The notes under the pieces were generated by a model. That model was not told where the DNA came from, did no database searches, and saw nothing but the letters and a program-made list of their open reading frames with translations. DNA of 57,192 bases, the filler included, from Jimgerdemannia flammicorona (lineage: Eukaryota): NCBI GenBank assembly GCA_003990765.1. It is 3 parts of 3 records of this genome, joined end to end, with 100 filler letters (N's around TTAATTAATTAA, not from the genome) between each part and the next. Parts side by side here need not be neighbours in the genome. Positions count along the whole stretch, not along the records: positions 1 to 19,003 come from RBNJ01002053.1; 2 more parts are not named here. The stretch is one strand, 5' to 3'. Every line of letters starts with the position of its first letter. Position 1 is the stretch's first letter. Below, piece after piece: positions 1,881 to 57,192 of this stretch. Position numbers and translations under genes: made by a program.

Positions 1881-3955
1881 TGTAAGAGGGTTACTTTTTA
1901 GGGTGACCGTTACATAGTTCTGGAAGGGTTTTCTGGAAGCTCTGGATATTCTAGAAGACCGTTTTCTTATGGTCAAGATCAATTTTGTATGGAGTACGTC
2001 CTCTACGCTTATTGATTTCAAGATCGGGTTGATGTCTCAACCAAAGTCCTTTTTCAGACTAGTTCTGGATGTTCAGGATTTTCCATATTTTAGGAAGTTC
2101 AAGAAACTAAGACCAGCTTAGTTGAATTGGCGTATCGCTGCAGACAATACCCAATTAGGAAATTTCGTGACAGAGTTAGGAGTAGGACCTAACAGAGAGC
2201 AGATTTACTTAAGAGTGGTTTGTGGGTTATGGAATAGGTTTATTTGCTATTCATGATATTGCTATACTAGGAATATTTGTATGAAGGGGTATTGTGGGGA
2301 AGTGCTCAGGAGTTGTGTTCCGATTGTTCAAGTCCATTCAAGTCTGAGATTCTGAGGTCTGGGGGAGGGGGTATTTATACTAGTGAGGGGCTATCTGGAC
2401 TATGCTAGATATGGATGTAGCACTAAGTGCCTTGCTGAGTCGGAGTGCAGTCACATAGTACAAGTGTGGTCTGACATGTCAAGGGATCGTCTGACTGCTG
2501 AGTCAGTTCACAGTCATGTCGTACAAGGCTAATCTAAGTATACTATGACTGCTAGGCTATTTATGAGTTTAGGCACTGTCTGGGTAGTCTTCGATGACAT
2601 CACCATCGATTGCATCATCTCTGATGAAGTAGTCGTCTAGGAAGAGTGGTTCGTGGATTACTTCTCCTTGTTGGCTGAGGTAGTAATATATTGGGACTTC
2701 ATCTCCATCCTACAGGATAGCATCGTCTGTTTCGTATGCTGGATAAGGTGTTGGTGGGCGAAGGATGGGTATACTGTCTTCACTTTCATTGGATTCGCTG
2801 TCTGCATATCTTCTATAGGTTACAGCACTATGAGTTGCGGGGTTATAGTATGCTGGCAGCTGTGGTTCATGTCGCTTGTACTCGGGTGGTGGAGTGGTTG
2901 GTTCAATCTCGAGGGTTGTCTGAAGGTACAGGTTGTGTTCTCCAGTCTCCTCATTGTAATTGAAGTAATCAGGGGTAAACGCGGGTTGGTATTCGTGCCA
3001 GTGGTCATTGTCCCAATAAGTCTCATATGCAGTTATGAACTGTTGTAAGTTCATCGGCAAGGTCGGCGGAGTGATCAGGGTTGGCAGAGATCCTTGGCTA
3101 GAGGTCATGTCAGTGTCAGAGGGATCATTGTCTTCTGCTTCATCTTCATCGAAGTGGATTATATCATAGACGTCCTTCATGGTGTATCCGACTTGAGGCA
3201 TTTGCAGGATATGGTCATCAGGGTGCGGGAAGGTTCTGTCTGTGGTCTGGACATATTCGAGGTACTTGTGGTTGAGTTCTTGTATCATGTCATCGATTTG
3301 GCCATAGGACAGGGTAGCAACCATTTCGCTAGTAGTAACTCGGAGGTGGGGAATGAAGGCGTTATACTCGTAGAAGAGTTCTTGATGTTTGCGGGCGATG
3401 AGCTTCTGGTGTTGAGACATCTGGGTAATGTCTGTATCATGGTGATGTTCAACCATGTCTTCCAGGAGGTGGCCGATCTAGTAGTAGCTGGAGATTTGTC
3501 CGATTCAGTGGGCCTCGTTAAGCATGTTCAGGGCATTCCATTGGGCTTCCACGAAGTAGAGGGGTGCCAGGCTATAGATATTTATGAGGGGCAGAGGGGG
3601 TGTGGCTTGGTTGACAATGGCATTCCAAATGTCAGCGCGGATGCGGTTATAGATCTCAGTGGTCATGTTTGTGTGTTTGGAAGTTGTGGTTATTGTTTGT
3701 TTTGGTTCTCTGATTCGACGCATCTTGGTGCTCGGTATATATGCATTTGGTCCTGATTGGTAAGGTTCCGTTTGTGTAGATCTTGTGTTCTGTGACTTCG
3801 TATTGACTCAGCTTTGTGCACTGTGACTTCGGTTTGACTCAGCTTCGTGATCAAGCAGGTGATTTCCAGATTTGTTCGGAGGTTGCATGTGATTTCAGTG
3901 GCTTTGTTCAGAGAGTGACATGTAATTTCGGTGGCTTGGAGGTTGTGCGCTTACA
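1881..3955 (-). repeat. 3' LTR of element B (2075 bp)
   Basis: TGTAAGAGGG...GCGCTTACA, colinear with 10474-12552; - strand TATAAATA at 2379-2372. Confidence 0.95.
2569..3723 (-). pseudogene. LTR-encoded accessory ORF of element B (consensus ~384 aa; unknown function)
   Basis: ORFs 3723-3505 and 3456-2710 share a frame; the stops at 3505, 3478 and 2710 are sense codons in the other LTR; ends TAA at 2569. Confidence 0.8.
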
Positions 3956-3968
3956 ACTCTCCCCTTCT
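3956..3968 (-). other. Polypurine tract of element B
   Basis: AGAAGGGGAGAGT on the - strand abutting the 3' LTR. Confidence 0.85.
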
Positions 3969-4379
3969 TAGCTTTCGACATCCTTGTTGGGGCCTTCTAA
4001 TTTGTTCTAGTGTTGTTACACCATTTGGGAGGTCAAAAGTCTGGTAAGGTCCATTTTCTCAGAAAGTGGCATGCTCATAGTACAGTTGCCTAACACGTTG
4101 GATTCACACGTTAAAGGGTCATGTGTTCAATGCTGTGTGCCGGAAGTGATTCTGACATCAATCACTGCTGGAGAATTTCCTCTAAGGAATCTTCTTAAAT
4201 GTCTATGCCTTATTTCCCACCAGTGGTATGGGGAGAATAGGCTTGCTTTCAGTTTGCTATTTTTCCAGAGGGTCAGTATTCTTGTCTTGTTTTGCTGAGT
4301 TCTTGACTTAGTTCGTGATAGTTATAATGTTCAGGAGAGTAATATATAGTATGTATGGATAGGTGCAGAGTATTTGGTT

Positions 4380-7300
4380 CTAGTTGTTCAAGGAATCATA
4401 TTCCTGAACTAGATCGGTAGCATTCTGAAGATTGGTCTTGGGTTCCCAGGTTGCATCATGGATCGGGTAACCTTTCCATTTGACAAGGTACTCAGGATGG
4501 TTCTTGTTACCACGTTTGTTGAGAATTTGTTCAACTTCGTATTCTTCTTGGTCATTAATGATGATAGGTGCAGGTGGTTCGGTGGTTCGGTTTGGGAATA
4601 GTTCATCATCATTGTCATTGTATCGCTTGAGACGTTGAACATTAAAGACTGGGTAAATCTTAATGGTGTCTGGTAGTGCCAGTTTGTAGGAGGTTGGAGA
4701 GACTTGTGTAATGACTTCAAATGGTCCAATGAACTTGCTGTTCAGCTTTGTGGATGGTCTGTGCTTGAGGTTGTCAACTCGGTATCCTCTGATGTCTAGT
4801 AGAACTTTTTCTCCAATATCAAAAGTTTCTTCTCGGCGGTGTTGGTTAATATACTGTGACTGTTGTTCTTGAGCTCGTGATAAATTCTCAATTGCGATCT
4901 GGCTTAGATTGCACATTCGGAGTAGGAATTCTTCAACAGCTTCGACTGTGGAGGGTTCATCAGTAGTTCGGATAAGTGTCAGAGGGGTGTTTGGGTTTTG
5001 TCCAGTATTGGCAAAGAATGGAGTCATTCCAAGAGAGGCTTGCTTACTGTTGTTATAGGCAAACTCGACTATGGTGAGGTGTTCATGCCAATCATCTTGT
5101 CTGTAGGAGACATAGTGCCTTAGCATTTGTTCTAGAGTTCGGTTCATTCTTTCGGTTTGGCCATCGGTTTCAGGGTGAAAGGCTGTGGATAGTGCAAGTT
5201 TTGTTCCAAGGTGTGCATGAAGGGCTTTCCAAAAGTGGCTGGTGAATTTCGGATCTCAGTCACTAATAATGATCTTGGGGAGACCATGATAGCGGAAGAT
5301 GTTGTCAAACAAGAGTGTGGCTATGTCTGGTGCTGTTGCAGTGGTGGTAGTAGGTATAAAGTGGGCTTGTTTGCTGAGATAGTCCACAAAGACAATAATT
5401 GCATCTTTCCCATTCTTGGTTTGGGGTAGTTGTACAATGAAGTCCATAGAGATTTGTTCCCAATTTGCGGATGGTACTGGGATAGGGTGAAGTAAGCCGG
5501 GTTTTGCTAGTGTTGAGGACTTGTTTCATTGGCAGGCATCACAGGAAGTGATGTAGGTTTTGAGCTGATCTGCCATGCGGGGCCAATAGAAGTTTTGGGA
5601 GATAACTTCGTAACATTTGTCAAATCCTAAATGTCCAGCTGTAGGGGCATCATGACATTCGAATAGGATAGTCCTTCAGAGGTCTCAGTTGTTTGAGACA
5701 TACAGTCTGTCCTTATAGTAGATAGCATTGTCCTTGAGTTGGTATTGATTGTACTGGGTATACTTGTCAGCATCATCATTGTTCAGGATTTCTCGAAGTG
5801 CTTGAGCTTCTTTATCATCAACACATGCTGCAATGATTTGTTCCATGATAGTGTTGGTAACCAAGGTCAGAGTTTGGATAACCTCCTCGATTAGTGGTCT
5901 GGAGATGGCATCGGCAACAATATTTTCCTTGCCAGGGTGGTACTAGATTTCATAGTCAAAGTTGGTGAGGACTTTCATCCATCTGGCTTGCTTTTGAGAA
6001 AGAGTAGCCTGGGTCTTGATATTGACTAATGACTTGTGGTCAGTCAATATAGTAAAGTGTGCTCCTTCTAGATATGGTCGCCATTTGATCAGAGTGTCTA
6101 CGATAGCTAGCATTTCCTTTTCATAAGTTGCGTAGTTGATTTCGGTATCATTGAACTTGCAGGAGTGATAGGCCACAGGGTGTCTTTCTTGCATGAGCAC
6201 TGCTCCAAGAGCTAGGTCAGAGGCATCAGTGGTGACTTCATATGGTAGGGCAGGATTTGCTGCTTGAAGTACTGGTGTGGTTATGAGGGCATCTTTTAGT
6301 GCTTGAAAGGCAGTATCTTGTTCGGGTCCCCAATTTGCAAGATTGTTGAAGTCTTTCTCTTGTTTCATGGTCCAGGGTTGTTCTTGTTCCTTGCTGTGCT
6401 TGGTCATTTGGGTGAGGGTGGTAGCGATTTTAGCAAAGTTGGCAACAAATCGCCTGTAATAGTTTGCTAATCCCAGGAATGACTGGAGGTCTTTCAGCTT
6501 CTTCGGTCTGGGCCAATCTTTAATTGCAGAGATTTTGCTGGGGTCTACTTTGATTCTATTCGGAGTGACAATGTGTCCAAGGAATTGAATTTCTTTCAGG
6601 AGAAATTTGCACTTGCTGAGTTTTGCAAAGAGTCGGCTTTCTCAGAGTTTCAGTAGTACTAGTTCGAGGTATTCAAGATGTTCTTCTAGGGTTTTGCTGA
6701 AGACTAGGATGTCATCAATGTAGACAACAATGAATTTGTCCAGGTATGGATGCAGAATGGTATTCATCAGTGTCTGGAAGGTTTCTGGAGCATTAGTTAA
6801 GCCAAAGGACATAACCAGGAACTCAAAGTGTCCATAGTGAGTTCGGAAAGCTGTCTTGTAGATGTTTTCTTCTTTCATGGCAATTTGCCAGTAACCATTT
6901 CGCAGGTCAAAAGAGCTCATGAATTGTGGGTTGGTAAGTCTATCGAATATTTCATCGATCCTCGGTAGTGGGCAACAGTTCTTAATGGTCTGTTCATTGA
7001 GATCACGGTAGTCAATACACATTCGTAGGTCTCCTCCTTTCTTGACAACAAAGAGGACTGGTGCACCATAGGGTGATACGCTGGGTCTGATGAATCCTTA
7101 TTCTAGGAGTTCGTCGATTTCCTTCTTGAGTGCATCAATTTCTCTCAGAGACATGTAGTAGATTGACTTGAAGGCTGGTTTGGCATCTGGGATAGTCTTG
7201 ATTGCATGGTCTACTGCTCGTTTGGGAGGTAGGCCTTTCGGGAGCTTCTTTGGGAATATGTCTCGGAATTTCTGAAGTAGTGATCTGACATGGCTGTCAA

Positions 7301-9512
7301 CTTTGGAAAAGTCCTCTTCAGAGTTCTCGGGTTCTCCTTTGGATGGGCGGATGGAGATAGCAAAGAGAGGGCATTTCTTGGCCAATTTCTTGAGTTGTAG
7401 CTTGTTGATGTGGGTGATCTTTGGTCCAGGTTCACTAGAGTTGAGTGGGTTCTTTTTGCCTTGTAGTTTGAAGTTGTGGCGTCCTTTCTTGATGGTCAGA
7501 GAATGGTTTACCCAATCAATCATGGGGTTCTCTTGCTTTAACCATGGAGTCCCAAGAATGATTTCATTGTCAGGAAGTAGTACGATTTGGAGGGTAACAT
7601 GTACTCGATAGTCGCCAATTCAGAAGGGTAGATTGCAGACTTCTTTGCTAATAACATGTGAGGTTCCATCAGCTGTAGCAACTGCTTGAGTTTGCTGTAC
7701 TGGGGAGGTGAAGACCTTGAGTCTGTTGGCTGTTTCCTTATTGATGAAGTTGCCTGAGGCACTACTGTCTATCATAATCTTGACAGGTGCTCTGTTGACA
7801 AAAGCCTTAAGGGTGAGCAGTTTGTCTGATCCAATGGTGGTGATTTCAGTTGTAGGAGCCTTTCTTCTGTTGGTTCTTCTTTGAGCCAGTTCGTTGACAC
7901 AAGAGAAGCAATCATCAATCATTCGGGAAGAGTACATTCCAATACCATGAGGGCATCAGCCACTTGGTACATATCCATCTTCTATCTTCTTGTAGAATTG
8001 TTCTTCTTTGCTTATGGTAGGTTGGGCTGGTGCTTTGTTTGATGAGCCAAATCCTTTGGATCCTCAGATGGTAGGTAGTAGTTCAGGGACTTCCTTGACT
8101 GTCAGGGTTGACTCGATTTTTTCGAATAGGATCTGGGCGATACAGAAACCAATAGGGATCTTGAAGGGTATCCAACTGTGATTTCGGATGAGGACAATGA
8201 TTTCGCCTGTATAATCTTCGTCAATGACTCCTCCTTCTACTGAGAGTCCTTTCAGCGCTAGGCTACTGTGACAGCATATTCTTCCAATATGTCCTTCAGG
8301 GATTTGGATACTGATTCCTGTATAGACTTGTTTGATTTCTTGGTTGGAAACTGTAGCTTCTTTGGCTGCATATAGGTCATATCTGGCTGCTTTTTGACTT
8401 CCTTTGGTTGGGGCCTTAGCAGTTTGTCTTAACTTGACAAAGTCTAGTATTCTGGTGGTCAGGTTGTTGAGGTGGTGCAGAGTGATAACAGTTGCTCATG
8501 TTGCTGTTCGGGGTTTTCGGTTGGGGCAGGCACTGGCCATGTGTCCTGTCTTTCAGCAATAGAAGCATGCTCCGCTTCTTCGAAGTTTGTTTCTTTTGCC
8601 TTCGGTAAGTTTCTTGAAGGTACTCGGCTGGGTGGGTTCATGATTTCTGAGTGTCCAAGGGGTGGATGTAGGGGGAGCTTGGGATGCTTCATGCTTGGGT
8701 TCTTCTTTCTTGGTCCAAGTCTTTTCCTTGTTGTTGAATTGCCTTTGGGGCAGAATTGGTCTAGCTGTTAGGATTCACTTGACCATGGTCTTGATTCTTG
8801 CCAGGCACCATTGTTAGTGATCGCAACCAACTGGGCAGCCTTGTTCTCGGATTTTTCTAGTAAGCCATTCAGGCAGAGCATCGAATAAATGGTCTGCCCT
8901 TGTATCATTTCGTGCTTCGTCATTGGCAATGTATCCTAGGCCAACAGTGTTCAGGAGTGACTCGAGTTTTATATAGAATGTTTCAAATTCTTCTTTGCCA
9001 TGTACATCAAATTTGAGGTTGCGGAGTTTTACTCGAGATTCGGCAATCATGGTCTCGCTGCGGTATTGAGCAATCATGAGTTGTTTGAGTCCAGGAGCTG
9101 CAGGATGGGCTCTATATCCTGGGGCATTGTTTGCTGCATTCTGAGCAACTACTGTAGGTCGGGTATCCTATGTGAGGGGTTTTTCAGGAAGGGTTCGCCA
9201 CCATTCTTCAGCAGGTCCTCGGAAGAATGTAACAACTCGGCGGACATAGGCTGTAGTTGTAGCAAAGAGTTGTTCCAGAGTGTGATCTTGATTGTTTGTC
9301 AGAATGCGGTCAGCAACTCGCTCATTGGTCCATTGATTGGCTTCAAAGTTGGTATCAACTACACTAATGAAGCTTTGGACTTCTTGTACAGTACCATTGA
9401 AGGTAGGTAGGCTCAGATTTTTTGTAGGTTGGGTCTGTTCAGCTAAGGCAGTAATGGTTGCTGCTATTATAGCTACTTGGGCTGTGAGGTCTAGAATCTG
9501 TTGGTTTGCCAT
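4380..9512 (-). pseudogene. Element B single-frame gag-pol: Gag(CCHC)-dUTPase-CPHG module-protease-RT-RNase H-integrase-chromodomain, broken by scattered stops
   Basis: The pieces checked share one frame: CFYC*KTGHMASAC (8567), GGVIDEDYTGEI (~8235), MIDSSASGNFI, YIDD, TDASD/TDH, IGPF, EYEVEQIL...YLVKWKGY...TWEP. Confidence 0.93.
8040..8444 (-). pseudogene. dUTPase domain of element B (between nucleocapsid and protease)
   Basis: Manual translation: AARYDLY...HSSLALKGLSVEGGVIDEDYTGEI...IAQI...*GSKGFGSS, matching trimeric dUTPase motifs 1-5; not in the ORF track. Confidence 0.88.
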
Positions 9513-10458
9513 GTTGTTTACTGGAGGTAGCTGGACTGCTGGTAGTGGTGTTACTGGTACTACTTGAGATACTGGTGCAGAGTGTGATGGGGTTCTTTGG
9601 ATCTGTGTAAGTTGCTGGAGTAGTAGTTGTGGATCTGGAGTAAGGGCTTGATAGATAGCTGTTTGTTGCTGTGTAGGTGTATTCTGTCCTGATGGATGTG
9701 TGTCTCCTTCAGTAGTGTATCTGAGATCGAATTCGGTGAGATACTCCTCCTCTTCTTCGGTTTGGTCCCTGTGTAATTGGGTTTACTCAGCGTTAAAGTA
9801 GACAGAATCAGTTGTATATCTGATCTCAGATGGACTTAATTCAAAGTCAAGTTCAGGTTCAGTATTGGTTTCAGATTCAGGTAGGATTGTAGCAGGGCCT
9901 GCTTCAGGTTTGGGGTCAGGTAGTTGATAATGGGTTTCTCTTGCTTCTTCTTTAAGAATATGGTGGGCCTTGCTGTTCTGGAATCGGTAGTATAAGGCAG
10001 TCTTGGTCCTGGTGCAGTGAAAGTCGGTAGAGTTGAGCCACTTGGCTACAGAGGCTTGGGCTTCGTGAGGAACTAAGACTAGAAAGACTGCTGCTGGTTG
10101 TCCTAGGTCGCTCGGATTTGTGGAGCTGACAAAACTCTTATTGAGAAGAGTAAAGAAGGCTTCAATAAGACCTTCTTCATCTTGACTTGCTGGGTGTAGT
10201 GCAAGGAGTTCGGTGAATAGGATTTCGCCTATTTGCTGGTTTAACTTGAGTACTTCTTTTTTTGAATGAAGTTTATCCCACTTGTTGCAGGTGTGGAGGT
10301 CAAATTGTCCTTGTACATCAGATTCAATTCTCTCCAGATTGTCAGATTGTTCAGATAAATTCCAGTTCAGAGGTTGGGCTTTATACCAACTTGTAGGAAT
10401 TCACAGAAGAGTTTGTAGTGGGGTGAGGAAGCATCTTGAAGCAGAATTGGATTATAAA

Positions 10459-10470
10459 CCGCTGCTACCA
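10459..10470 (-). other. Primer binding site of element B, probably initiator tRNA-Met
   Basis: TGGTAGCAGCGG 3 nt inside the 5' LTR; TGGTAGC is complementary to the 3' end (GCUACCA) of fungal and animal tRNAi-Met. Confidence 0.75.
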
Positions 10471-10473
10471 AGT

Positions 10474-12552
10474 TGTAAGAGGGTTACTTTTTAGGGTGAC
10501 CGTTACGTAGTTCTGGAAGGGTTTTCTGGAAGCTCTGGATATTCTGGAAGACTGTTTTCTTATGGTCAAGATCAATTTCATATGGAGTATGTTCTCTACG
10601 CTTATTGATTTCAAGATCGGGTTGACGTCTCAACCAAAGTCCTTTTTCGGACTAGTTCTGGATGTTCAGGATTTTCTGTATTTCAGGAAGTTCAAGAAAC
10701 TAAGACCAGCTTAGTTGAATTGGCGTATCGCTGCAGACAATACCCAATTAGGAAATTTCGTGATGGAGTTAGGAGTAGGACCTAACAGGGAGCAGATTTA
10801 CTTAAGAGTGGTTTGTGGGTTATGGAATAGGTTTATTTGCTATTCATGATATTGCTATACTAGGAATATTTGTGTGAAGGGGTATTGTGGGGAAGTGCTC
10901 AGGAGTTGTGTTCCGATTGTTCAAGTCCATTCAAGTCTGAGATTCTGAGGTCTGGGGGAGGGGGTATTTATACTAGTGAGGGGCTATCTGGACTATACTA
11001 GATATGGATGTAGCACTAAGTGCCTTGCTGAGTCGGAGTGCAGTCACGTAGTACAAGTGTGGTCTGACATGTCAAGGGATCGTCTGACTGCTGAGTCAGT
11101 TCACAGTCACGTCGTACAAGGCTAATCTAAGTATACTATGACTGCTAGGCTATTTATGAGTTTAGGTACTGTCTGGGTAGTCTTCGATGACATCACCATT
11201 GATTGCATCATCTCTGATGAAGTAGTCATCTAGGAAGAGTGGTTCGTGGATTACTTCTCCTTATTGGCTGAGGTAGTAATACATACATCGGGACTTCATC
11301 TCCATCCCACAGAATAGCATCGTCTATTTCGTATGCTGGATAAGGTGTTGGTGGGCGAAGGATGGGTGTACTGTCTTCGCTTTCATCGGATTCGCTGTCT
11401 GCGTACCTTCTATAGGTTACAGCACTATGAGTTGCGGGGTTATAGTATGCTGGCGGCTGTGGTTCATGTCGCTCATACTCGGGTGGTGGAGTGGTTGATT
11501 CGATCTCGAGGGTTGTCTGAAGGTACAGGTTGTGTTCTCCAGTCTCTTCATTGTAATTGAAGTAATCGGGGGTAAATGCAGGTTGGTATTCGTGTCAGTG
11601 GTCATTGTCCCAATAAGTCTCGTATGCAGTTATGAACTGTTGTAAGTTCATCGGCAAGGTCGGCGGAGTGATCAGGGTTGGCAGAGATCCTTGGCTAGAG
11701 GTCATGTCAGTGTCAGAGGGATCATTGTCTTCTGCTTCATCTTCATCAAAGTGGATTATATCATAGACATCCTTCATGGCATATCCGACTTGAGGCATTT
11801 GCAGGATATGGTCATCAGGGTGCGGGAAGGTTCTGTCTATAGTCTGGATATATTCGAGGTACTTGTGGTTGAGTTCTTGTATCATGTCATCGATTTGGCC
11901 ATAGGACAGGGTAGCAACCATTTCGCTGGTAGTAACTCGGAGGCAGGGAATAAAGGCATTGTACTCGTAGAAGAGTTCTCGATGTTTGTGGGCGATGAGC
12001 TTCTGGTGTTGAGACATCTGGGTAATGTCTGTATCATGGTGATGTTTGACCATGTCTTCCAGGAGGTGGCTGATCTGGTAATAGCTTGAGATTTGTCTGA
12101 TTTGGTGGGCCTCGTTAAGCATGTTCAGGGCATTCCATCAGGCTTCCACGAAGTAGAGGGGTGCCAGGCTATGGATATTCATGAGGGGCAGAGGGGGTGT
12201 GGCTCGGTTGACAATGGCATTCCAAATGTCAGCACGGATGCAGTTATAGATCTCAGTGGTCATGTTTGTATGTTTGGAAGTTGTGGTTATTGTTTGTTTT
12301 GGTTCTCTGATTCGATGCATCTTGGTGCTTGGTATATATGCATTTGGTCCTGATTGGTAAGGTTCTGTTTATGTAGATCTTGTGTTCTGTGACTTTGTAT
12401 TGACTCAGCTTTGTGCGCTGTGACTTCGGTTTGACTCAGCTTCGTGATCAAGCAGGTGATTTCCAGATTTGTTCGGAGGTTGCATGTGATTTCAGTGGCT
12501 TTGTTCAGAGGGTGACATGTAATTTCGGTGGCTTGGAGGTTGTGCGCTTACA
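10474..12552 (-). repeat. 5' LTR of element B (2079 bp)
   Basis: Colinear with 1881-3955, with a 4-nt insertion near 11281; TATA at 10964-10973. Confidence 0.95.
11162..12320 (-). pseudogene. Second copy of the B LTR accessory ORF
   Basis: Pieces 12320-12138 and 12122-11595 share a frame; stops fall at different codons from the 3' LTR copy. Confidence 0.8.
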
Positions 12553-12557
12553 GAAAG

Positions 12558-15500: not shown

Positions 15501-16689
15501 TAAATCAATCATGAATAAGGAGCTCTACTATGGAATTATCACATACCTGGGACAGCAAAAGATGCCCCAACATCTGGAAGAATGGACACAAATGATTATC
15601 AACAGAACATAGAAACAATTCGAAACTGATGGAGAAATACTGAAGAAAGGAAAACTACTAGTCATATCAGAACACAAGAAGGAGCAAGTGATGAAATCAG
15701 TATATAAACTTGGCCATCTAGGAGGAATGAATACATATGACAAGGCAAGAAGAACAATATGGTGGCCAGGGATAAAGGAAGATATCAGACAATTCATCAA
15801 AACCTGCGACAAATGCCAGAAACAGAAACAAGACCAATGAAACCAGGCCCCGGGATCAGCATGTATAGAACCAGTACCATTTGCCCACATAGCAATGGAT
15901 GTAATTGGCCCTCTACCCTTGATCCTGACTGGTAACCGATATATCATTGTCATTATAGACCTTTTTATGAAGTGGATAGAAGCAGGACCTCTCAAGAAAG
16001 CCAATGCACAGTTAATTGCTGATTTCTTCTACAAGGAAATCATCTGCCAGTTCAAGACCTCAACATAAGTAACTATAGATAGAGGAACAGAATTTGTGAA
16101 CCAGCTCTTTGAGGTTCTTTACAAGAAGTACAAGATCTAGCACATTTGGATCACAGTCTATCACCCCCAAGAAAATAGACAAGCAGAAAGGACCAATAAG
16201 ACCCTCAAGAATGTTATTGCCAAGATCTGTGATAACTATGAAAACTGGGATTACTATCTGCCAATAGTATTATCCACTCTCTGGGATATCTGATCACAAA
16301 GTATCCACTTTACCCCTTGAGAAATGCTATTTGGAGAAGAATGTTCTCAGGGAACCCTATCATCTAATAGAGATACTATATGGAAACATGTGGACATGGA
16401 AATATGGAGACTACACCAAATCAGGAAGAAGGCTGAGAATTACATAACCAAGGCACAGACACTACAATAGAGGAATGTGGAAAAGACCCACAAACCCTTG
16501 GAGATTATCAAGATAAGAGACAAAGTCCTAGTATATCGGAATATGGTAGAAGCTTTATGGTCATAAAACTGGAGCCCAAGTAGGAAGGACCTTACCTGGT
16601 GCAAGATATAAAAGGGGCTACAAAAACCCTCAGGCACAATAATTTCCACCACCATTCACCAAAACCGACTCAAGAAATATTATGGCTAG
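12558..16689 (+). pseudogene. pol: Element A gag end plus pol: protease, CPHG module, dUTPase, RT, RNase H, integrase
   Basis: AIIDMGVG (degenerate DTG), GGVIDSDYTGEI, LCVDYRKLN, YVDD at ~14691, LQTDVS, IN zinc finger GHLG...CDKC, GPY; ends RLKKYYG* at 16689. Confidence 0.9.
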
Positions 16690-17068
16690 TAACAAAAGTA
16701 CTGCAATGGCACTCAAGATCACTAGCACTGCCCAAAGAGCCATTGAGAGACAATGGTGCACCACCAAGCCTCCAACCATAGAGAAGTCTTATGACAGTAT
16801 CCAAAGCATCATGTAGACTCATCTCTCTCAAATCTCACACTTTAAGGCCTATCAGCATCGAAACGAATTTCAAGAGTACTTCAAACTTGGCCAAGTACTC
16901 AACTAAGACCCAGAAATAACCAAAGAAAATTGGATCACAGAATACCAGCTCTCTTATTCCTAGATCACTATTGCTAAGAGAATCCACAAGCTATTCTGAG
17001 AAAATGAACCAGCACTAGCCCATGCGACACCATTGGAAAACAGTAATACAACAAATCACACAATATAA
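16682..17068 (+). pseudogene. Element A accessory ORF between integrase and 3' LTR, homologous to the LTR ORFs of B/C/D/E
   Basis: MASNKST...QRAIERQW...FQEYFKLGQVL...ITIAKRIHKLF*ENEPALAH, with 4 internal stops; its ATG overlaps the end of IN. Confidence 0.62.
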
Positions 17069-17142
17069 GACCATACAGACCATTGAAGCCTGGGAGTTTG
17101 AATAGATGCTTTAGGGACAAGATCATCTATTCAAGAGGAAGT

Positions 17143-17699: not shown

Positions 17700-18111
17700 T
17701 ATTAGTATTTCTAAATAAATTAAATTAAGATCTAATTTGATTTAAAATTAAAGTTAAACTTTGAAATATAATAACTTGATAGAAATATAACTATATTTAA
17801 TAATTTTTATTATATTTGATTCTTCTAATAAAATGAGTAATACTCTTAATGAATTAAATTAAATCAAAGATCAATTCAAATTGAATCAAAGGTTAATTCA
17901 ATTTAAAATTTAATTCAAATACTATTTTTTGAAATGTAATAACTTGACAAAAATATATCCAAATTTAACAATCTTTAGCTTGTTAGATTTCCCTATATAA
18001 GAGGAATCTAACAAGCTTATGTAAGATCATTAAATTTGGATATGTTTTCATTGAGTTATTATATTTTGAACTTTAAAATCCCCAATTTGATTTGATTCAT
18101 TTGGAAGTGCT
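17700..18111. mobile_element. Degenerate palindromic hAT-type MITE copies (half copy ~17700-17830; copy ~17837-18111)
   Basis: Same hairpin core GTTAGATTTCCCTATATAAGAGGAATCTAAC and TTTGAT/ATCAAA arms as 30065-30421. Confidence 0.65.
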
Positions 18112-20070: not shown

Positions 20071-20688
20071 TTCTCTAAAAACTATGTTAAAAGTATTATT
20101 AGAAGTTTGTATAATATGAATTATAGTAGAGAGAGATGCCCAGCAAATACCCTGCACTTATTAAACTAGGAGACAACAATGTCATCTATACTCAAGAAAA
20201 GAGAAATATTAGGATATATCTCTATAGCAATAATGCAAAATCTGCTAGTATCTTTCTAGTTATATATATTATATATTCCAGAAATCAGCAAAAATCTCTT
20301 TTTGATGAGAAAAATGATGTCCTACAATAATAAAGAAATATATATATTATCACATAGTAGTTGCTGAGTCCTTCAAATATACCAGATTCTCTTCAAGGTA
20401 TATCTCTTAGACTAACTCAAGTTTGTTATAAATAAGTTCTTATTGGAGTGCCTTCCCAAGGTCTTATAGTCCTCAAACTTCTTATCTTTAACTGTCTTGT
20501 TATCTCTTAGATTGCTTGTAAGGAAGTGTGTATATTGTACTGAGAAGACTGACTTTATTTCAGGGGAAATAAGAGGAGTATTTATACAAAATACAATTCA
20601 ATGGTTACTAAGATATAAAGCTAAATATAAATTCCAATTACTAAAACTACTAAGTTCTAGGGCTGGCATTGATGATTATATAGGTTCA

Positions 20689-20888
20689 GGATGCTGGCAT
20701 TATTTAGTATCATATCAAAATGTCAGTGCTGGAACAATTTCGCATCACCTCAGAATACCAGTGCTGGCATTATCCAGTGTTACATGAGAATACCAGTGCT
20801 GGAACAATTTCGCATCACCTCAGAATACCAGTGCTGGCATTATCCAGTGTTACATGAGAATACCAGTGCTGGCATTATCTAGTGTAAC
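20689..20888. repeat. 35-bp tandem repeat (~6 units, alternating 70-bp higher-order unit) in the C LTR U3
   Basis: CAGTGCTGG recurs at 20724, 20759, 20794, 20829 and 20864. Confidence 0.9.
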
Positions 20889-20895
20889 AAAGAAC

Positions 20896-21723
20896 TTAGA
20901 GCAGAAAGTTCAGGATTATGAAGGCTTCATCATCATCATCATCACTGAAGGAGATGAGGTCCATGAATTCATTGTGCAGGCCATGTGTCTTGCGTACTTT
21001 GTGTGCTTTGGGTATGTCGTGTGGGATGACATCATCACCAATGACATCATCATGTTTGGCAGGGAAATTGGGAACAAGGTCTGGAGCTCTCCAGTCTATA
21101 AGGTTCTCTTCTACAAAATAGGAGACAAATGTGGGGTCTTGGGGAGATCTAACCCAGATACTTGGGCCTTGGAATACTGAGATCAATCCTTACAGGAATT
21201 GGTCTGGGTTGTCCTGAAGGATAGGGTGCCAGAAGTCTTCTACTTCTTCACTGTTGAGGGTGATAGTGGACTGGGCTTCTGTAGCCACTCTGGCTTCTAG
21301 CATATTGATATGGTGGAATGATAGATCTCTGAAGTCTGAGACTCTAACATACTCCAAGTTGGGGATTGACCATAGTACATGCCTGAAGATCTGATAGATC
21401 TTCTTAGCTGCTCTTATTTCATATATATCCATGGGAGTGGCATCTTGTAGCTCTTGGGTGCTGGCCTCTGGGAACTCCTGGCAGAGGAGGTTTCCTATTT
21501 CATACTCCTGCCACATTTGGAGGCATTCAGTAGCAATGGTGATCCTTGTTTCCATTTCACAGCAGTAGAGAATAAAGTGATAAGGGTCTGCAGTATCCAG
21601 GTTAACACTGGGAGTCCTTCTTGTGTGGGTCTCCATGACTCTTCTGATGTCTTGGAACATTCTTTCCTCAACTGAGATATCTTGGTAATTCCTTGACCTT
21701 GAGGTTTGGCAGGTAGCAGGCAT
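20896..21723 (-). pseudogene. LTR-encoded accessory ORF of the C/D family (275 codons, one internal stop)
   Basis: ORFs 21723-21190 and 21186-20896 are in frame; the TAA is CAA in the D 5' LTR (QFLQGL, ~46040). Confidence 0.8.
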
Positions 21724-22320
21724 TTCATTTGTGATAAGTCTTTGAGCTATTTTGGGATTGGTGGTTCTTATTGGTTACTACTACTGTGGTTCCTTGATTC
21801 TTCTTTTATATTCTTCAGGATACTTGTGCTATAGACACAATGACTCACAGTTGGTCATCATTACTCATCTTGTATGCCATATAATCTTCTTGTGCTCCGA
21901 TCTGGTGGCTTGTAAGGAAAAGCTGTCTCCTGTGCTGATGTCATTATTCTGGGGTCACTGTTATATCTTCCTCCTGAATAAAGATCTTCCTGAATATCTT
22001 TATTCATTAGTTCAGTCCTGAAAAATTTGCTAATCCCATAACCTCTGGCAAGGGGTCAAAAATTGGTATTTATGGGCTGGTGTCTTCCCTTTATATTTTG
22101 GCATAATGGTGAAGAGTCGCTCCCTTCATATAGAGCAAGGGCCTGATTCTGATCTTGATCAATCAGTTGACAGTTCGAACTCCTCTGACTTCAAAAGTCT
22201 CATGGATGAGTAGTTGCCAGTGCTGTATTTCTTAGAGAATGGTCCAGACAGATAGCCTGCTGGTCACGGGACATGCTGTTACAATTCGCGGACTAGAACC
22301 TCGTAGGTGGTCATCATGTA

Positions 22321-27530: not shown

Positions 27531-27652
27531 ATCTTGTCTTGAATTCTTGCAGGGGTGACTCTTGTAGTCAGAGTAGTTGTTGTAGGGGTTGTTCGTTTTT
27601 CAGCTTGAAAGTGAGGGATTTATCTTGAATCACCAGCCAATGGGCACCAAGT

Positions 27653-29203
27653 TGTCATGTAGTGGTCACTGAGTCCTTCAAATATGCCAGATTCTCTTCA
27701 AGGTATATCTCTTAGACTAACTCAAGTTTGTTATAAGCAAGTTCTTATTGGAGTGCCTTCCCAAGGTCTTATAGTCCTCAAACTTCTTATCTTTAAACTG
27801 TCTTGTTATCTCTTAGATTGCTTGCAAGGAAGTGTATATAAGTGAAACCAGAACTGACTTTATTTCAGAGGAAATAAGAGGGGTATTTATACAAAATATA
27901 ATTCAATAGTTGCTAAAATATAAAGCTAAATATAAAATTCAATAACTAAAACTACTAAGTTCTAGGGTCAGTACTGGTTGTACAGATTCAGATTGCTGGT
28001 ATAATTCAGTGTCACATCAGAATACCAGTGCTGGAACAATTCTGTGTCACCTCAGAATGCCAGTACTGGCATTATCCAGTATAACAAGGAACTTAGAGCA
28101 GAATGTTCAAGACCATAGGGGCTTCATCCTCATCATCAGAGGTCAGAATATCTTCAAAGGAGATGAGGTCCACGAACGTTTTGTAAAGGTTGCATAGGTT
28201 GTGCATCTTGCGTATGTCATACATTTTGCATACTTCGATGTCGTGTATCTCGCATATGTCAAAGTCATGTGGGATGATGTCATTGCTGATGATGTCATCA
28301 TATTCAGTGACAGGGAAATTGGGGGCTCTCCAATCTATGAGATTCTCTTCCACAAAATAAGAGACAAATATGAGATCTTGGAGAGGTCTGATCTGGATGC
28401 TTGGGCCTTGGAATACTGAGATCAATCCTTACAGAAATTAGTCTGGGTTGTCCTGGAGGATGGGGTGCCAGAAGTCTTCTACTTCATCACTATTGAGGGT
28501 GATTGTGGACTGAGCTTCTGTAGCCACCCTGGCTTCTAGTGCATTGATATGGCAGGATGACAGGTCTCTGAAGTCTGAGACTCTGACATACTCCAAGTTG
28601 GGGATTGACCATGGTGCATGCCTGAAGATCTGATGGATCTTCTTAGCTGTTCTCGTTTCGTATATATCTATGAGAGTGATATCTTGTAGCTCTTGAGTGC
28701 TGGCCTATAGGAACTCCCAGCAGAGGAGGTTTCCTATTTCGTACTCCTGCTACATTTGGAGGTATTTGGTGGCAATAGTGATCCTTGTTTCCATTTCATG
28801 GTTATAGAGGATATAATGATAAGGGTCATCAGTATCCAGGTTGACACTAGGAGTCCTTCTTGAGTGGGTCCTCATAGCTCTTCTGATGTCTTGGAACATC
28901 CTTTTTTTGACTGAGGTACCTTGGTGGTTCCTTGACCTTAAGGTTTGGCAGGCAGCAGGCATTTCATTTGTGGTAAGTCTTTGAGCTATTTTGGGATTGG
29001 TGGGTCTTGTTGGTTGCTGCTACTATAGTTCCTTGATCCTTCTTTTATATTTCTCAAGGTATCATACTGTGGTCACAGTGACTCACAGTTGGTTATTGTT
29101 GCTCATCTCATATGCCATATGATCTCCTTGTGCTCTGATCTGATGGCTTATGAGGAAAGACTGTCTCCTGTGCTAATGTCATCATTCTGGGGTCACTATT
29201 ACA
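27653..29203 (-). repeat. 5' LTR of element C with degenerate accessory ORF (28962-28093)
   Basis: TGTCATGTAG...CTATTACA; 3 units of the 35-bp repeat. Confidence 0.9.
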
Positions 29204-29587: not shown

Positions 29588-30560
29588 TTTTTATTTTTTA
29601 TTTTTTTATTTTTATAATTACTTAGACTTCATTATTTATTATAAAATCAATCTATATCTATAAATATATAGCAACTCCACACCCTACCCAATCTCCTTAG
29701 AGGATTGCCCCCTCCTCTTTATTGTGATTAAAGACCACTAAACCATTAACCACTACAACTCACCCACTACTCTACTTACAAATATCCTCTATTAAGCATC
29801 ACTTATAATTATCCTAGAGGTCTCATCTTATCTATCAATCAGATATAATATCTTCTATCAATTACTCTCATCTTACCATCTTTTCCTCCAAGCTTATCCA
29901 CCTGCTCTTCTCAAATATATATAGCTAATATCTACTCAAAATACTAATGTCAACTCAATAGTAAGATACTCATTATTAATATACTCTACCAACCTCAACT
30001 TCAAATTCTCCTATCTACCCTCTACCACATCAATATACTGCCTCATTCCCAGATAACTCCCAACTAGTACTCTCAATAAATCAAATCAAATGTCCAATTC
30101 AATTTGATTCAAATCAAATCAAAGATCTAATTTGATTTGAGATTTAATTTGAACCCTATTTTTCAAAATATAATAACTTAACAAAAACATGTTCAAATTT
30201 AATGATATTTCACTTGTTAGATTCCCCTATATAAGAGGAATCTAACAAGCTAAAGATCATTAATTTTAGATATGTTTTCATCAAGTTATTATATTTTGAA
30301 AAATAGGGTTCAAATTAGACCCTCAATTTAATTTGAATTTAATTTGATTTAAACTTGATTTGAATTGAAAAAACCCCAATTAAATTTGATTTGAATTGAT
30401 TCAATTTATTTGGGAGCACTACTCCCAACCATCTTTCAGAAATTACCAACAACTATACATTTCTCTAATTAATATTTAGATATTTACACAAAATCTCTCT
30501 CCTGTTTTATATCATAACTATAATAACTCTTATTTCTATCCCTCTCTTATCTTTTAGATA
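29588..30560 (-). mobile_element. 3' fragment of a degenerate LINE, same family as 50690-51617
   Basis: T-rich tail at ~29588-29613; reverse complement aligns by eye with 50900-51617. Confidence 0.5.
30065..30421. mobile_element. Palindromic (foldback) MITE, hAT-type
   Basis: TAGTACTC...GAGCACTA termini; the whole element is an imperfect inverted repeat; exact 8-bp TSD CTCCCAAC (30057-30064, 30422-30429). Confidence 0.82.
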
Positions 30561-31156
30561 ATTAGAGAAACAAGATATTACTTAAAGACTTAGTATACAA
30601 TGTGTAACAAGAAGCATTCAGTATGAGAAAGTACTTACTTGAAATTAGTTGTAGTGGCAGTACCCTTCTTATTAATCTTAGTTATAAGGAACTTGTTCTT
30701 TGCTATATATAGACTGAATTCACCTTGGAATTCAGATTTAATTTGGGTTTACTTAAGTCCTTATAATTTATATACTGGTCTCAGTTCTGGCAGAAGTTAG
30801 CTAAGCTTCTGAAGTTTAGTCAGAAATACTAGAGTTACTTAGATATCATTACTAAGACTTAGGAGAATGTATGTGTGTAGAGAGAGAACTTGATTCTTAT
30901 ATCAAAGACTGAACTAAAACTGCTTTATTTCAGATAGAAACTGGGGGAGAATTTATGCAAGTTTATTTATAATGTTTGACTAAGTATGAGTGACTAATTT
31001 GGTAACTATGGTGAGATTTATAATCATAACTTTTATCAGGTAGTTTGAAATTAGAAATACTTTGTGATCAGAACCTCTATTGCTAGGCAATAATTGGCTG
31101 CTGCAGTACTGATTGCTGTAGCACAAATTGCTAGAGATAAGCTAGATATCATTTTA

Positions 31157-31172
<16 letters not shown>

Positions 31173-31227
<55 letters not shown>

Positions 31228-34200
31228 TATAGTCACTTGGACTCCTTTATTATGGAACTATCTAATACAACAAGACCCTATCTGATAACCACTATAACTA
31301 CAAATACAAGGAAGGGCCCATCAGCCTACACTTTCTTTCTACTATACCCCCTTCTCACCAAACACTAGGTGCTCCTGACTCCTCTGAACAATGTCTATTA
31401 TCTTCCTCATGGCTCCCAATTGGTGCCTCTTCCCCTGATACCACCACCTTTGTATCACTTCCAGAAGTAGCCCCTTCCACTGCTCCACCAGTTCGCCAAT
31501 TCTCATCTAAGGATCCTTCTTAAACACCCATCACCAGTGCACTGCCATCAGGACCCAGATGCCAATAATCCAGCCCAGACTACCCCAAATGTCCCCAATC
31601 TCTCCCACTGGTCACTGCTTGACCACTCAACTAGTGGGGCCCCCTGCTTGCTCACTCTTGCCACCCTAATAGCCTTCCAACATCTGCCAAAATCTCTCAA
31701 CCCCTGGACATACTGCCAAGACATGCTCTGGTGTCTGCACCACACCCCCATCCAGCTCACAATACCACTAATATTCTCTTATACCTTCAGCCTCCATCCA
31801 CCCCATCCTGTATCCCAGCATAACATTCCTTTGCAAAAATCTCCACCATACTACCCAAAACTTTGGTGGTACAATCTTGAGCAATAAGGTCTCCCAACCC
31901 CAAACCCAACTCCACTCCCAATCTTCCCCAAACCCAACCTTTTGCCATCCAACTGGCCACCTCTCAAGTGGACCCATCCAGATCCATTCCATAGCCCCAG
32001 ACACAGAGTATTCCACCAACTGATGACCACTAATATGAATATCTCCAAGTTGCCACCATCGCTGCTCCATATCCTCCTCTTTACCTAGCTCTGGATCTGT
32101 GAGTCCCATTGCCAGCCAAGCTTCCACAATACCCCACCAGAACCCCTGGTAATGCAATCTGCTAACTCTTTCAACCTGAAGCAAGCCTCACATATTCTTC
32201 TGAACCTCACCATGGAGACAAAACCTGACTTTCCAATTGTCCATCACCAGTTTGCCCCAACTATCCACTTCTAATTCTGTCAGTCGGTAACCCCACCAGC
32301 CCCAAAGTACCTTCAGCTACCTCCTAAAATCTACTAGCCCCAATCCACTATCTATTGTTCACATCACCACTGTCTCCTAACTAATCTGTGACCTTCTCTC
32401 TTACCACAGCTATTCTTTTACCACCTTCTTCAGTTTCTGTACTACCCAACCAGGAAAGTCCAAATGGTACCCCAAATATCACAGCTTTGGTAGCCAATAC
32501 ACATTCAATACTACAATCCTCCCCACCAAAGAGAAGCCCCTTCCTGACCAGCCCACCAAAGCGCTTTCCTACTTCTGTATCATTCCACACCACCACTCCT
32601 TTGGCAGCACCATCTCTTACACCAAGAACCAGATACCTAAATATTGAACTGTCTTTCCAGTATAGACCAGTTGTCCAAAATGTCCATGCTCTCCCAAACC
32701 AGCTCTAAGCTCTATAGTCTCACACTTGCCCCAATTCAGCTTTGCCCCTGCCAGCCTCTTGTACTGCTCTACCCTATCCTACGATCTTGCCACATCTGCC
32801 ATACAGCCTAACCCTACCACTATATCATCAGCAAAGGCCCCCAGCTTCCAGACCACATCCCCCATCTTCAGTCCAGTAAGCCTCTCCTTCAGCCATGCCA
32901 ACAAAGGCTCTAAGGATAAAATATAGAGTAGGGGCGAAAGAAGATCCCTCTGTGGCATACCTCTCCCCAAGGCAAACTCTGGGCCACTCCACCCATTCAT
33001 TAGTACTGCAGCCCAGCAGCCTCACACCAGACCCATCAGTTTCTGAGCCTCCACCACACTGAAACCTGCCTTCTGCAGAACTGTCTCCAAATAATTCTAC
33101 CTCACCCTGTTGTAAGCCTTTTCCTGATATAAGAACACTATTCTCCCATCCACTTGCCAGCTTCTACAGCCCTCCAAAATGTTTTGCACCCAGGCTGTAC
33201 TGTCTCGGACCTGCCTCCTCTTCACAAACCCTTACTGCTCTTCACCCACCAATTGGCCAATCCATCATTGCATTCTCCCTGCCAGAATATTGGAGACCAA
33301 CTTCCTGTCCACATTCAGTAGCATAATGAGCTGCCAGTTCTGCCACATATGTCAATCCCCTTTCTCCTTATAGAGCAGAGAGACTAACCCTAAGGAGCCA
33401 TTGCCAATCTAGCAACCTTCACTCAATATAAAGTTTGCCATTTCAACAAGCCATTCCCCAAACTCAACTTGAAACTCCTTCCAGAACTCCCAAGGTAGTC
33501 CATCCTCTCTTGGTGATAAACCAGTCTGCATTTTCCTCAGAACCTCCAATATCTCCTTAAGGGCCACCATACTCATTACTGCCCCACCTATCTCAGGCAC
33601 TGCTACTACTGGCCAGCTGCCAACCAAATTATCATTATCCTCCAGTGAAGCCTCTCTCTCCACCAGCCCTCCTTCATCTCGCCATAGAGTGCACCATTGA
33701 CCAGAGATTTCTCCAAGCATATCAGTAATACTAGTAACCTCAACTCCATCCTCTTACAACATCAAAGCCCAGCTATACCACACCCTTCTGGCCTTCAAGA
33801 TTTCTGACAAGTATTTAGTGGGTTGCTCTCCTTCTTCCAACCACCTTGCCCACAGTCTTGCCAATAGCCCATCTACCATCCTATCTTCTGCTGCCTTCAA
33901 ATCCAACCACAACTCAGTCACCTTCTTGGCCAACTGGGAGTATCATTCCCCTGATAAATTCTCCCCTTCCAGAAATTTCAGCCACCAATGTAGCCCCTGT
34001 TCAACTCTCCTTTCTCTATCCTTCTGCTCTCTTCCAGCTACCTCCCCCACATCATGCCAATAAGCACCTGCCAAATGTTTAAATTTCCCCCACCATTGTG
34101 CTATTGACTGTCTACTATTCTTCCATCATGTCACTTCCTGCCTCACAATTGCCACAAATTGATCCCTCTCCACTTATCTTTTGAGGAGTGCTACATTGAG

Positions 34201-36900: not shown

Positions 36901-37099
36901 GTTTGAGCAAAAGAAGTCCTTTTTTTGTATCATTTATTATATTCATTATTCATATATTATATATCATGCTTGATCAATAGTGATATTATTGTCAGATTAC
37001 ATGATTGCTCATTATATCTCATCTGTTTACTCACTACTTGTTCTATTACATCCTTTTCCTCTTAAAAATTAATATCCTCATTAATTTAGAAATTGAGAA

Positions 37100-37889
37100 C
37101 CAGGAGAGGGAAAGGTGGGAAATCCTTCTCAGTATTGTTGTCTTCTCCTTCAGTGACTAGAGGGGTAGTTGCTGATGGTATGATGTCTAGGATAGAGAAG
37201 TCAATGAGGTCTACAAATGGTTCTTGAACTAGAATAGACATTGGGATAGGGATTCTCCATCTAATATAGTTGGGACCATCTAAGTAGAGTTCTTACTCCT
37301 CATATCTGGAAATATCCATTCAGATGGGCAGTTCTTCAAAGAGATCAGAGAGACCTTGAAGCCATTGGTCTGAGTTGTTATTCAGGAGAGAGCTCTAGTG
37401 GGATTTGTAGTCAGTAGATTTGAGAGTAATTTAGAAGTTAGTTTCTTAGACAACCTTGATCTCTAGTTCATCAATCTTAGAGAATAAGAGGTTCTAGAAG
37501 TCCTTTAGTTATATATAGTTAAAGTTGGGAATTGCAAAGAGTATATAGTATATAATTTAATAGATCTTCTTGGCTTGTCTTTGCTTGTGTCTATCTATAT
37601 GAGTCTAGTCTGAGATCTGGTCAGTGGGTAGGCCATTTGAATATTGAAGAAGTTGATGGCCAATTTCAAATTTATGCCAGATTTCTAAATAGCTAGTAGT
37701 AAGGTAGGCCCTTTCAATAAGTTTATGGTGGTCAAGAACATACTGTTCTAGGTCCTAGATAAGGAGATTAAGGGCCTCAGAGCAATAGTTCTTTTCTTAG
37801 ATAGCAACCTGGATATGTTCAAAGAGGCAGTCAATCTGGCTTCAGAGGAGCTGGCTATAGTGAACTGTTTGGTGGTGGGTAGCAGACAT
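37100..37889 (-). pseudogene. Accessory ORF of relic E, homolog of the C/D LTR ORF
   Basis: Manual translation: LEIWHKFEIGHQL...RQAKKIY*II...AIPNFNYI*LKDF...LNNNSDQWLQGLSDLFE vs C LQMWQEYEIGNLL...RAAKKIYQIF...SIPNLEYVRVSDF...LQDNPDQFLQGLISVFQ; TATAAATA ~70 nt upstream; 3' end approximate. Confidence 0.72.
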
Positions 37890-47800: not shown

Positions 47801-48315
47801 GCTCTTGAGTACTGGTCTGTGTGAACTCCCGGTAGAGGAGGTTTCCTATTTCATACTTCTGCCACATTTGGAGGCATTCAGTAGCAATAGTGATCCTTGT
47901 TTCCATTTTATGGCAGTAGAGAATATAATGATAAGAGTTACCAGTACTCAGGTTGACACTAGGAGTCTTCTTGAGTAGGTCCTTATGGCTCTTCTGATGT
48001 CTTGGAACATCCTTTCTTCAACTGAGATACCTTGGTAGTTTCTTGACCTTGAGGTTTGGCAAGCAGCAGACATTTTGTTTATAGTAAGTCTTTGAGCTAT
48101 TTTGGGATTGGTGGGTCTTATTGGTTACTGCTACTACAGTTCCTTAATCCTTCTTTTATATTCCTTAAGATATCTGAACTGTGGTTGCAATGACTCACAG
48201 TTGGTCATCATTGCTCATCTCATATGCTGTATGATCTTCTTGTGCTCTGATCTGGTAGCTTGTAAGAAAAGGCTGTCTCCTGTACTGATGTCATTATTCT
48301 GGGATCACTATTATA
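38852..48315 (-). mobile_element. Element D: second, more mutated copy of the C family; 3' LTR truncated (38852-39591); 5' LTR 45289-48315 interrupted
   Basis: Colinear with 21210-29203 throughout; PBS TGGTGCCCATTGG at 45285-45273. Confidence 0.93.
46110..47607 (+). mobile_element. Solo LTR of a B-related family inserted in the D 5' LTR
   Basis: TGTAAGC...CTCTTACA; TSD AGGGT/AGAGT; 46870-47607 matches the reverse complement of 1881-2620, and 46110-46150 matches the opposite LTR end. Confidence 0.9.
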
Positions 48316-48544
48316 CTATGGGAATATTACAGAGCTTGCTGATACTTTCTTGGATATATTATATATTCTAGAGATAGGAAAGAATCTCTTTTCAATTAGC
48401 AAAATGATAGTCTGTAATAACAAAGAAATATATATATCTAATAAGAGCAATGATATATAGTTTGAAGAATAATAAGAAGATCATAATGGTGTCAAAATGA
48501 GAAAATCTTTATATGATCAATGGTATACTGAGTAGTATAAAGAC

Positions 48545-57121: not shown

Positions 57122-57192
57122 GTGAGTGTGACTGAGGCTATTTGCTTTTTATGATAAATAAACTATACATTGTTGATGTAAACTTTTTTTTT

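Follow-up and report, generated by a model that had tools for sequence, protein, structure and literature searches.

Mouse mammary tumour virus (MMTV) carries a superantigen gene, sag, that overlaps the unique 3' region (U3) of a long terminal repeat (LTR) of about 1.3 kb (PMC9147501; here and below, published work is drawn on for the accessible parts of each source). We describe a similar layout in a fungus. The 57,192-nucleotide stretch of Jimgerdemannia flammicorona DNA analysed here (three joined parts of assembly GCA_003990765.1; hereafter the window) includes element B, a Ty3/gypsy chromovirus with an open reading frame (ORF) inside each LTR. Like sag, this is an accessory gene that occupies an LTR of unusual length, precedes the putative main promoter and is doubled at both ends of the element. 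The product of sag is a type II membrane glycoprotein and its carrier a mammalian retrovirus; the gene in B belongs to a fungal Ty3/gypsy element, and its protein has no membrane or signal segment (the highest 19-residue Kyte–Doolittle mean is 0.86). Since neither Pfam nor the PDB gives a match, nothing suggests homology to sag, and the layout is convergent.

Extra ORFs are also known from the internal region of LTR retrotransposons (PMC7264820; PMC3485330, for Retrosat2 ORF0; PMC6431247), and gene23 of Grande has its own promoter (PMC7264820). Such additional ORFs (aORFs) resemble the B gene as family-wide, conserved orphan ORFs beside gag-pol (PMC7264820, PMC3485330), and the B gene is likewise present in most copies and conserved like pol. 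The aORFs described in the accessible text of PMC7264820 are internal, placed either ahead of gag or in the interval from pol to the 3' LTR, and are often antisense or env-like, whereas the genes of B and of a second family, C, lie wholly inside the LTR, run in sense and are not env-like. The B gene begins 289 nt into the LTR, past the polypurine tract (PPT), and so falls outside the internal region. In two further families treated below, E and F, the gene sits where such ORFs classically do, in sense orientation after pol and ahead of the 3' LTR.

Chromoviruses with a dUTPase are known from the fungi Postia, Phanerochaete and Tuber (PMC2864245). They share with B the order protease, reverse transcriptase (RT), RNase H, integrase and chromodomain, a dUTPase on the N-terminal side, TG...CA LTRs and a 5-bp duplication; the accessible text of that source mentions no LTR-internal gene, and a figure legend names an 'add. 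ORF' at a position outside that text. The CERV protein of Cer1 in C. elegans (PMC10309623) is, like the B protein, a novel accessory protein of an LTR retrotransposon acting in trans, which for B we infer. It differs in coming from a spliced mRNA and exporting genomic RNA. In the literature covered, including the accessible parts of PMC3248453 and PMC11117352 and excluding subscription journals, no fungal retrotransposon with an LTR-internal gene appears.

A selected gene inside the family B LTR

The LTR of family B holds a real accessory gene, a 365-codon frame wholly inside the repeat that was under purifying selection during transposition. We compared 30 copies, the top 30 of 40 scored DNA matches among 4,330 first-look candidates; this set includes the window's own two LTRs and is biased toward copies close to the query. 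The ratio of nonsynonymous to synonymous change (N/S) was computed pairwise and stratified by CpG, CpA, other transitions and transversions, with intervals from a codon bootstrap (100 replicates) that are approximate since pairs share ancestry. N/S was 0.33 (0.27–0.39) for the LTR gene and 0.30 (0.24–0.36) for integrase in 30 copies chosen alike, against 1.44 and 1.83 in the shifted frames of the gene and 0.82–1.38 in mock frames set in non-coding LTR. Constraint on the acidic, aromatic, proline-rich tail equals that on the remainder of the protein (0.17–0.42 by block). Across the 30 copies the LTR gene has gathered 50 stops and integrase 46.

A query-independent sample, 60 stretches totalling 595,401 bases and taken at even steps among contigs longer than 10 kb, gave ten long copies for the same calculation, with three short pieces and one interrupted divergent copy excluded. 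N/S was 0.51 in frame versus 1.06 and 1.67 out of frame, and 0.23 on transversions. These unselected copies carry 1–17 stops each; three have single-base frameshifts and one has lost 107 nt, the pattern that selection in an active lineage followed by decay should leave.

A sequence-only reading of this DNA had proposed that the two LTRs of B complement each other into an intact ORF of about 384 codons, open when B last transposed. The LTR alignment places the stops where that reading had them, as TGA 3507-3505, TAG 3480-3478 and TAG 2712-2710 in the 3' LTR and TGA 12140-12138 and TGA 11597-11595 in the 5' LTR. The 4-nt insertion in the latter, put near 11281, aligns at 11289-11286 and, as a short duplication, is ambiguous in position. 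Complementation holds for openness, as no lesion is common to both LTRs, and fails for the original letters, which are not restored because at two of the five stop sites both LTRs altered the same CpG independently. Every lesion is private to one LTR and rare among copies (each stop site is a stop in only 2–6 of the 30, and the insertion occurs in one), so the frame was open in the parent RNA, as had been argued. The multi-copy check that the reading itself named as a refutation failed to refute it, since at any one codon at most 8 of 30 copies have a stop. Five natural copies are free of stops (six for integrase), which makes a merged sequence unnecessary. Within the frame an indel occurs in the window's 5' LTR alone. 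In metagenome contigs all ten indels listed fall outside it, though a contig of low depth omits 194 nt within it. From base composition about 16 stops would be expected per 365 codons, for a chance of openness near 1e-7, and the other two sense frames have 13 and 27 majority-stop codons versus none in the gene frame. An antisense gene was rejected: variation falls mostly at sense third positions, and the wobble-sharing antisense frame has 21 majority stops.

The proposed length had to be revised. The ATG at 3666 is present in 30 of 30 copies and the 19 codons before it (3723-3667) are unconstrained, with N/S of 1.32, so the gene has 365 codons. The earlier start, ATG 3723 (12320 in the 5' LTR), was rejected; it is in both window LTRs and sits on a decaying CpG, yet only 14 of the 30 copies have it, the remainder reading ACG (11), ACA (4) or ATA (1). 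Also upstream of the gene, an ATG-less frame at 3667-3807 shows N/S of 0.39 over 47 codons, too short to judge and possibly noise or promoter constraint. The described richness of the C-terminal half in D, E, P and Y was borne out (residues 171–365: D 12%, E 10%, P 12%, Y 10%, net charge -36).

Element B itself is a dead copy in a nest of LTR retrotransposons (Table 1), its main gag-pol frame having 16 stops ahead of its end. A domain search gave the pol order protease, RT, RNase H, integrase, with a chromodomain at the integrase C-terminus (PF00385, E 1e-17); no Pfam family matched the gag part. The PPT was seen before 12 of 30 B LTR copies. Three Chitin_synth_1N matches above the Pfam cut-off mark the host as a fungus. 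The 231-Mb assembly has 4,330–5,172 first-look candidates for B, and the ORF occurs in 13 of the 60 sampled stretches. Near-identical DNA occurs in soil metagenomes, where four runs from four studies cover 30 of 30 bins of the B LTR.

Over 2075 aligned sites the two LTRs differ by 81 transitions and 2 transversions (Kimura two-parameter distance 0.042), mostly in CpG or CpA context, which fits deamination of methylated DNA after insertion. Given this 81:2 bias between the LTRs of B (1881-12552), which extends to CpA sites, ordinary LTR-divergence dating would overstate ages in this genome.

Table 1. Features of element B and related genes in the window (positions along the whole stretch)
Feature	Position	Strand	Remarks
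Element B, full-length dead Ty3/gypsy chromovirus	1881..12552	-	reverse insertion within element A
Target duplication of B, 5 bp	1876-1880 and 12553-12557		CTTTC
3' LTR of B	1881..3955	-	2075 bp, TG...CA
5' LTR of B	10474..12552	-	2079 bp, TG...CA
PPT of B	3956..3969	-	immediately before 3' LTR
Primer-binding site of B	10459..10470	-	12 nt, complementary to 3' end of tRNA-Met(CAT) with CCA, same genome
gag-pol of B	4380..10400	-	many stops; dUTPase (8064-8495), protease, RT, RNase H, integrase with SH3 and chromodomain
LTR gene, 3' LTR copy	2569..3666	-	365 codons; stops at 3505, 3478, 2710
LTR gene, 5' LTR copy	11162..12263	-	stops at 12138, 11595; 4-nt insertion near 11286
Putative LTR-gene promoter	3736..3841	-	TGAGTCA twice (3841, 3810), CCAAT (3760), TATATA (3741, 75 nt before ATG)
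Putative genomic-RNA promoter and poly(A) signal	2239..2505	-	after stop codon; TGACTCA (2505), TATAAATA (2379), AATAAA (2244)
Probable distant homologue, element C 3' LTR	20896..21723	-	second copy starts 28962, C 5' LTR
Short probable homologue before element A PPT	16682..17105	+	just before PPT; 153 aa in intact relatives; frameshifted here

Relatives, promoter signals and a derivative without the gene

The B protein (43 kDa, isoelectric point 4.4) has two homologues outside this assembly: P0004, 92% identical, and P0003, an open environmental sequence that aligns over 250 residues at 68% identity, has two in-frame gaps and ends at the same point. A search of 1.84 billion representatives gave three matches and no credible homologue besides these two; the third, P0005 (E 2.6e-6), was rejected as spurious, being a repeat protein that matches 38 residues. 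Scans of metagenome contigs found no locus for P0003, and none of 150 scored assembly matches was a divergent B subfamily closer to it.

Three further dUTPase-bearing families, found in the sample and the window, have a sense ORF at the 3' end. It has about 268 codons and ends at the PPT in family E. In family F, which includes element A of the window, it has 153 codons, ends about 30 nt before the PPT and has 11 environmental relatives; in family C it has about 275 codons wholly within 1.6-kb LTRs. All are constrained, with N/S of 0.47 in E (8 copies), 0.31 in F (6) and 0.60 in C (6) against 1.1–1.7 off frame. The E and C proteins are 33–41% identical, and F matches E and C at E 6e-4. From sequence comparison, the B gene is likely homologous to these genes through an N-terminal helical domain. 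This link is weaker than those among E, C and F. A profile made from 19 sequences of E, C and F, with B left out, matched the window B ORF at E 0.014 and P0004 at E 0.002, collinearly from the N-terminus over about 130 residues, among 2.49 million six-frame residues; the best match in a reversed database was at E 1.2. By hhalign, B against the sister families scored 22.3 versus a maximum of 19.6 in 40 shuffles, but with a probability of 2%; B against F alone was not above shuffles, and one profile iteration moved B to E 3. The gene of C, in the LTR, is closer to that of E, before the PPT, than to that of B, in the LTR, so the cassette has probably changed side of the PPT more than once; the integrase tree, which compares sequences of this genome, leaves the window's C and A elements aside.

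Other members and relatives of these families were noted in passing. Elements C and D and further LTR pieces of the same family (27652-29203, 20345-21967; 38852-46109; 46871-48319) have their own gene inside LTRs of about 1.6 kb, and a tandem repeat follows the family C LTR gene near 20692-20889. A decayed family E element on the minus strand has its pre-PPT ORF at 37080-37889 with TATAAATA 79 nt upstream, and a strong GC skew at 31-37 kb (31000-37000) is probably its body. In family E, as at L089:1250-1800, the chromodomain stop and the accessory gene lie about 550 nt apart, and the interval includes a long frame, open in part, that contains Cys and His. At L084:1680-2460 lies a B relative strongly decayed by C-to-T and G-to-A changes, its ORF 53% identical over 90 aa; it has four AAGCTGAGTCAA-type repeats at the LTR start and is interrupted by a younger B LTR.

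The motif pattern in the B LTR is most simply read as two promoters in one LTR with one common poly(A) signal. Upstream of the gene, the TGAGTCA pair (presumably AP-1/Gcn4-type sites), CCAAT and TATATA are kept in 28/29, 28/30, 29/30 and 29/30 copies; the TATATA is at 3741-3736, just before the ORF as first described. Downstream, TGACTCA is kept in 26/29 copies, TATAAATA in 26/26 and AATAAA in 22/22. The earlier placement of the ORF upstream of the LTR TATA stands by motif order, with TATAAATA at 2379-2372, while the U3 label reflects motif positions rather than mapped RNA ends. A TATA box lies 72–90 nt upstream of 24 of 24 starts (5 B, 8 E, 6 C and 5 F; chance 0.01–0.04 per 15 nt), leaving out L116, L119 and L129, whose upstream DNA is cut off or replaced. 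Family C has one TGAGTCA upstream of its gene.

Family B also has a non-autonomous derivative, B', with 2,102 first-look candidates. Its 1.49-kb LTR keeps the first ~70 nt and the last 742 nt of the B LTR, and the ORF is replaced by about 700 nt of other DNA, 290 nt of it 78% like the post-pol region of family E. No frame in the B' U3 is open or constrained (N/S 0.96–1.06 in six frames, 25 copies), which also provides the method's negative control. All ten 3' LTRs showing internal sequence jump from the RT start to the PPT region, so that B' keeps gag, dUTPase and protease without RT, RNase H and integrase; one sampled copy, L084, has a different deletion. Since B' multiplied without the ORF, the gene is not needed in cis, and because B' kept the downstream TATA, that TATA is supported as the genomic-RNA promoter. 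Copies of B' were located at L078:2013-3506, L084:5264-6754 and L133-L157.

Elsewhere in the window, host genes stand at the far end (a C2H2 zinc-finger ORF at 52860-53369 and an intron-split valyl-tRNA synthetase at 54676-57154), and AT-rich palindromic repeats of about 350 bp, resembling miniature inverted-repeat transposable elements, lie at 1-141, 17717-18070, 30062-30424 and 48533-48902.

What the protein may do

The best overall explanation, to which we give a probability of about 0.45, would be a self-contained accessory-gene cassette whose product raises transcription of the element. Transcription of the gene would probably start from a TATA of its own, some 75 nt before it, and end at the LTR poly(A) signal, with genomic RNA made from the TATA at 2379. 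Because U3 is copied to both ends during reverse transcription, each LTR, even a solo one, would be a full copy of the cassette. Its product probably acts in trans, because a derivative without the ORF and most of pol still multiplied. The least secure step, put forward tentatively, is that the product may be a soluble regulator of element transcription, either an activator or a counter to methylation silencing. Such a regulator would use the N-terminal helical domain of about 135 aa common to the sister families and, in B, also the conserved acidic, Pro/Tyr-rich tail of activation-domain type. For a soluble protein that acts in trans and combines a conserved helical domain with an acidic-aromatic tail, a transcription regulator would be the best match. 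Structure models of low confidence (pLDDT 36 and 50) predict helices for residues 1–145 and a tail that is largely open.

Several results weigh against this explanation. The B protein had no match in Pfam and a best E of 0.14 in a PDB profile search; fold searches with the low-confidence helical models gave no clear match, the AlphaFold models being too weak for such searches to be informative, and no basic nuclear-localisation or DNA-binding stretch is evident in the protein (K+R 4–8%). In family F the TATA overlaps the end of integrase coding, which makes F a weaker independent case, and the 153-aa homologues lack the acidic tail, which therefore cannot be what the families share in function. 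Loss of the gene in B' would also fit a dispensable gene. The sole hint of a helix-turn-helix was HTH_Tnp_Mu_2 (E 0.03–0.11, in 2 of 14 proteins). A suspected likeness to ParB/DUF3102-type helix-turn-helix proteins was set aside, as Pfam, PHROGs, PDB and fold search do not support it, and ESM Atlas neighbours were taken as leads only (B at best 0.83; the family E protein 0.92–0.93 to unrelated clusters including DUF6192, with 133–154 shared features).

The main rival, which we consider rather unlikely, keeps the same gene and promoter and would have the protein act after transcription, as a co-factor of genomic RNA in export, packaging or the particle, much as Rev/Rem or the CERV of Cer1 do. 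A Ty3/gypsy element offers a precedent (PMC10309623), four dUTPase-bearing families retain a soluble accessory protein, and B', which keeps gag, could borrow that protein in trans. The B protein is, however, net acidic and without an Arg-rich RNA-binding motif, and a crude scan gave only three donor-like and two acceptor-like motifs, as candidates. We think it quite improbable that the protein limits transposition, through copy-number control or interference with competing elements, and goes on being supplied by solo LTRs. The cassette does persist in solo LTRs (L027 and L006, with matching 5-bp flanks) and the ORF-less derivative spread widely (2,102 first-look candidates), but B itself is very abundant (4,330–5,172 candidates; 13/60 sampled regions), and its stops accrue at the integrase rate (50 vs 46, 30 copies), so there is no sign of upkeep at host level.

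A protein aimed at host stress, growth or partner biology, with indirect gain to the element as for MMTV with sag, also seems improbable. It would account for a genomic position the same as that of sag (PMC9147501), and the upstream motifs resemble sites that we take to be stress-responsive bZIP sites; against it, the protein lacks a signal or membrane segment and has no cellular homologue among the 1.84 billion representatives (three matches, one a spurious repeat protein). Dispensability in B' would suit either a fragment of a host gene captured not long ago or an open frame that is neutral and has no role. That reading is scarcely credible given selection equal to that on integrase; the frame-specific N/S already contradicts it, and the open 68% homologue P0003, the constraint on probable homologues at 14–20% identity (N/S 0.47, 0.60 and 0.31) and the lack of a host gene match also speak against it.

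A coding LTR in an abundant family

Retrotransposon LTRs are usually treated as non-coding in annotation and divergence dating, and an LTR normally holds control signals only. In one of the most abundant families of this genome, about half of the 2.1-kb B LTR is a gene constrained like integrase. Element B thus offers a retrotransposon parallel to the MMTV sag layout, together with an unnamed protein family. The function of accessory ORFs is called an open question in a review (PMC7264820), and these families provide a natural contrast for it, with the gene in the LTR, before the PPT, or lost. A wider account is possible though doubtful: an undescribed trans-activator or anti-silencing family may travel as a promoter-plus-gene cassette in a fungal dUTPase-bearing Ty3/gypsy lineage, having shifted side of the PPT more than once. 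Inside U3 it would make stand-alone expression units of thousands of LTRs and solo LTRs, and these could keep the family, along with the non-autonomous elements parasitic on it, active in a genome under heavy methylation. If the protein does counter silencing, it could help to explain the expansion of the genome.

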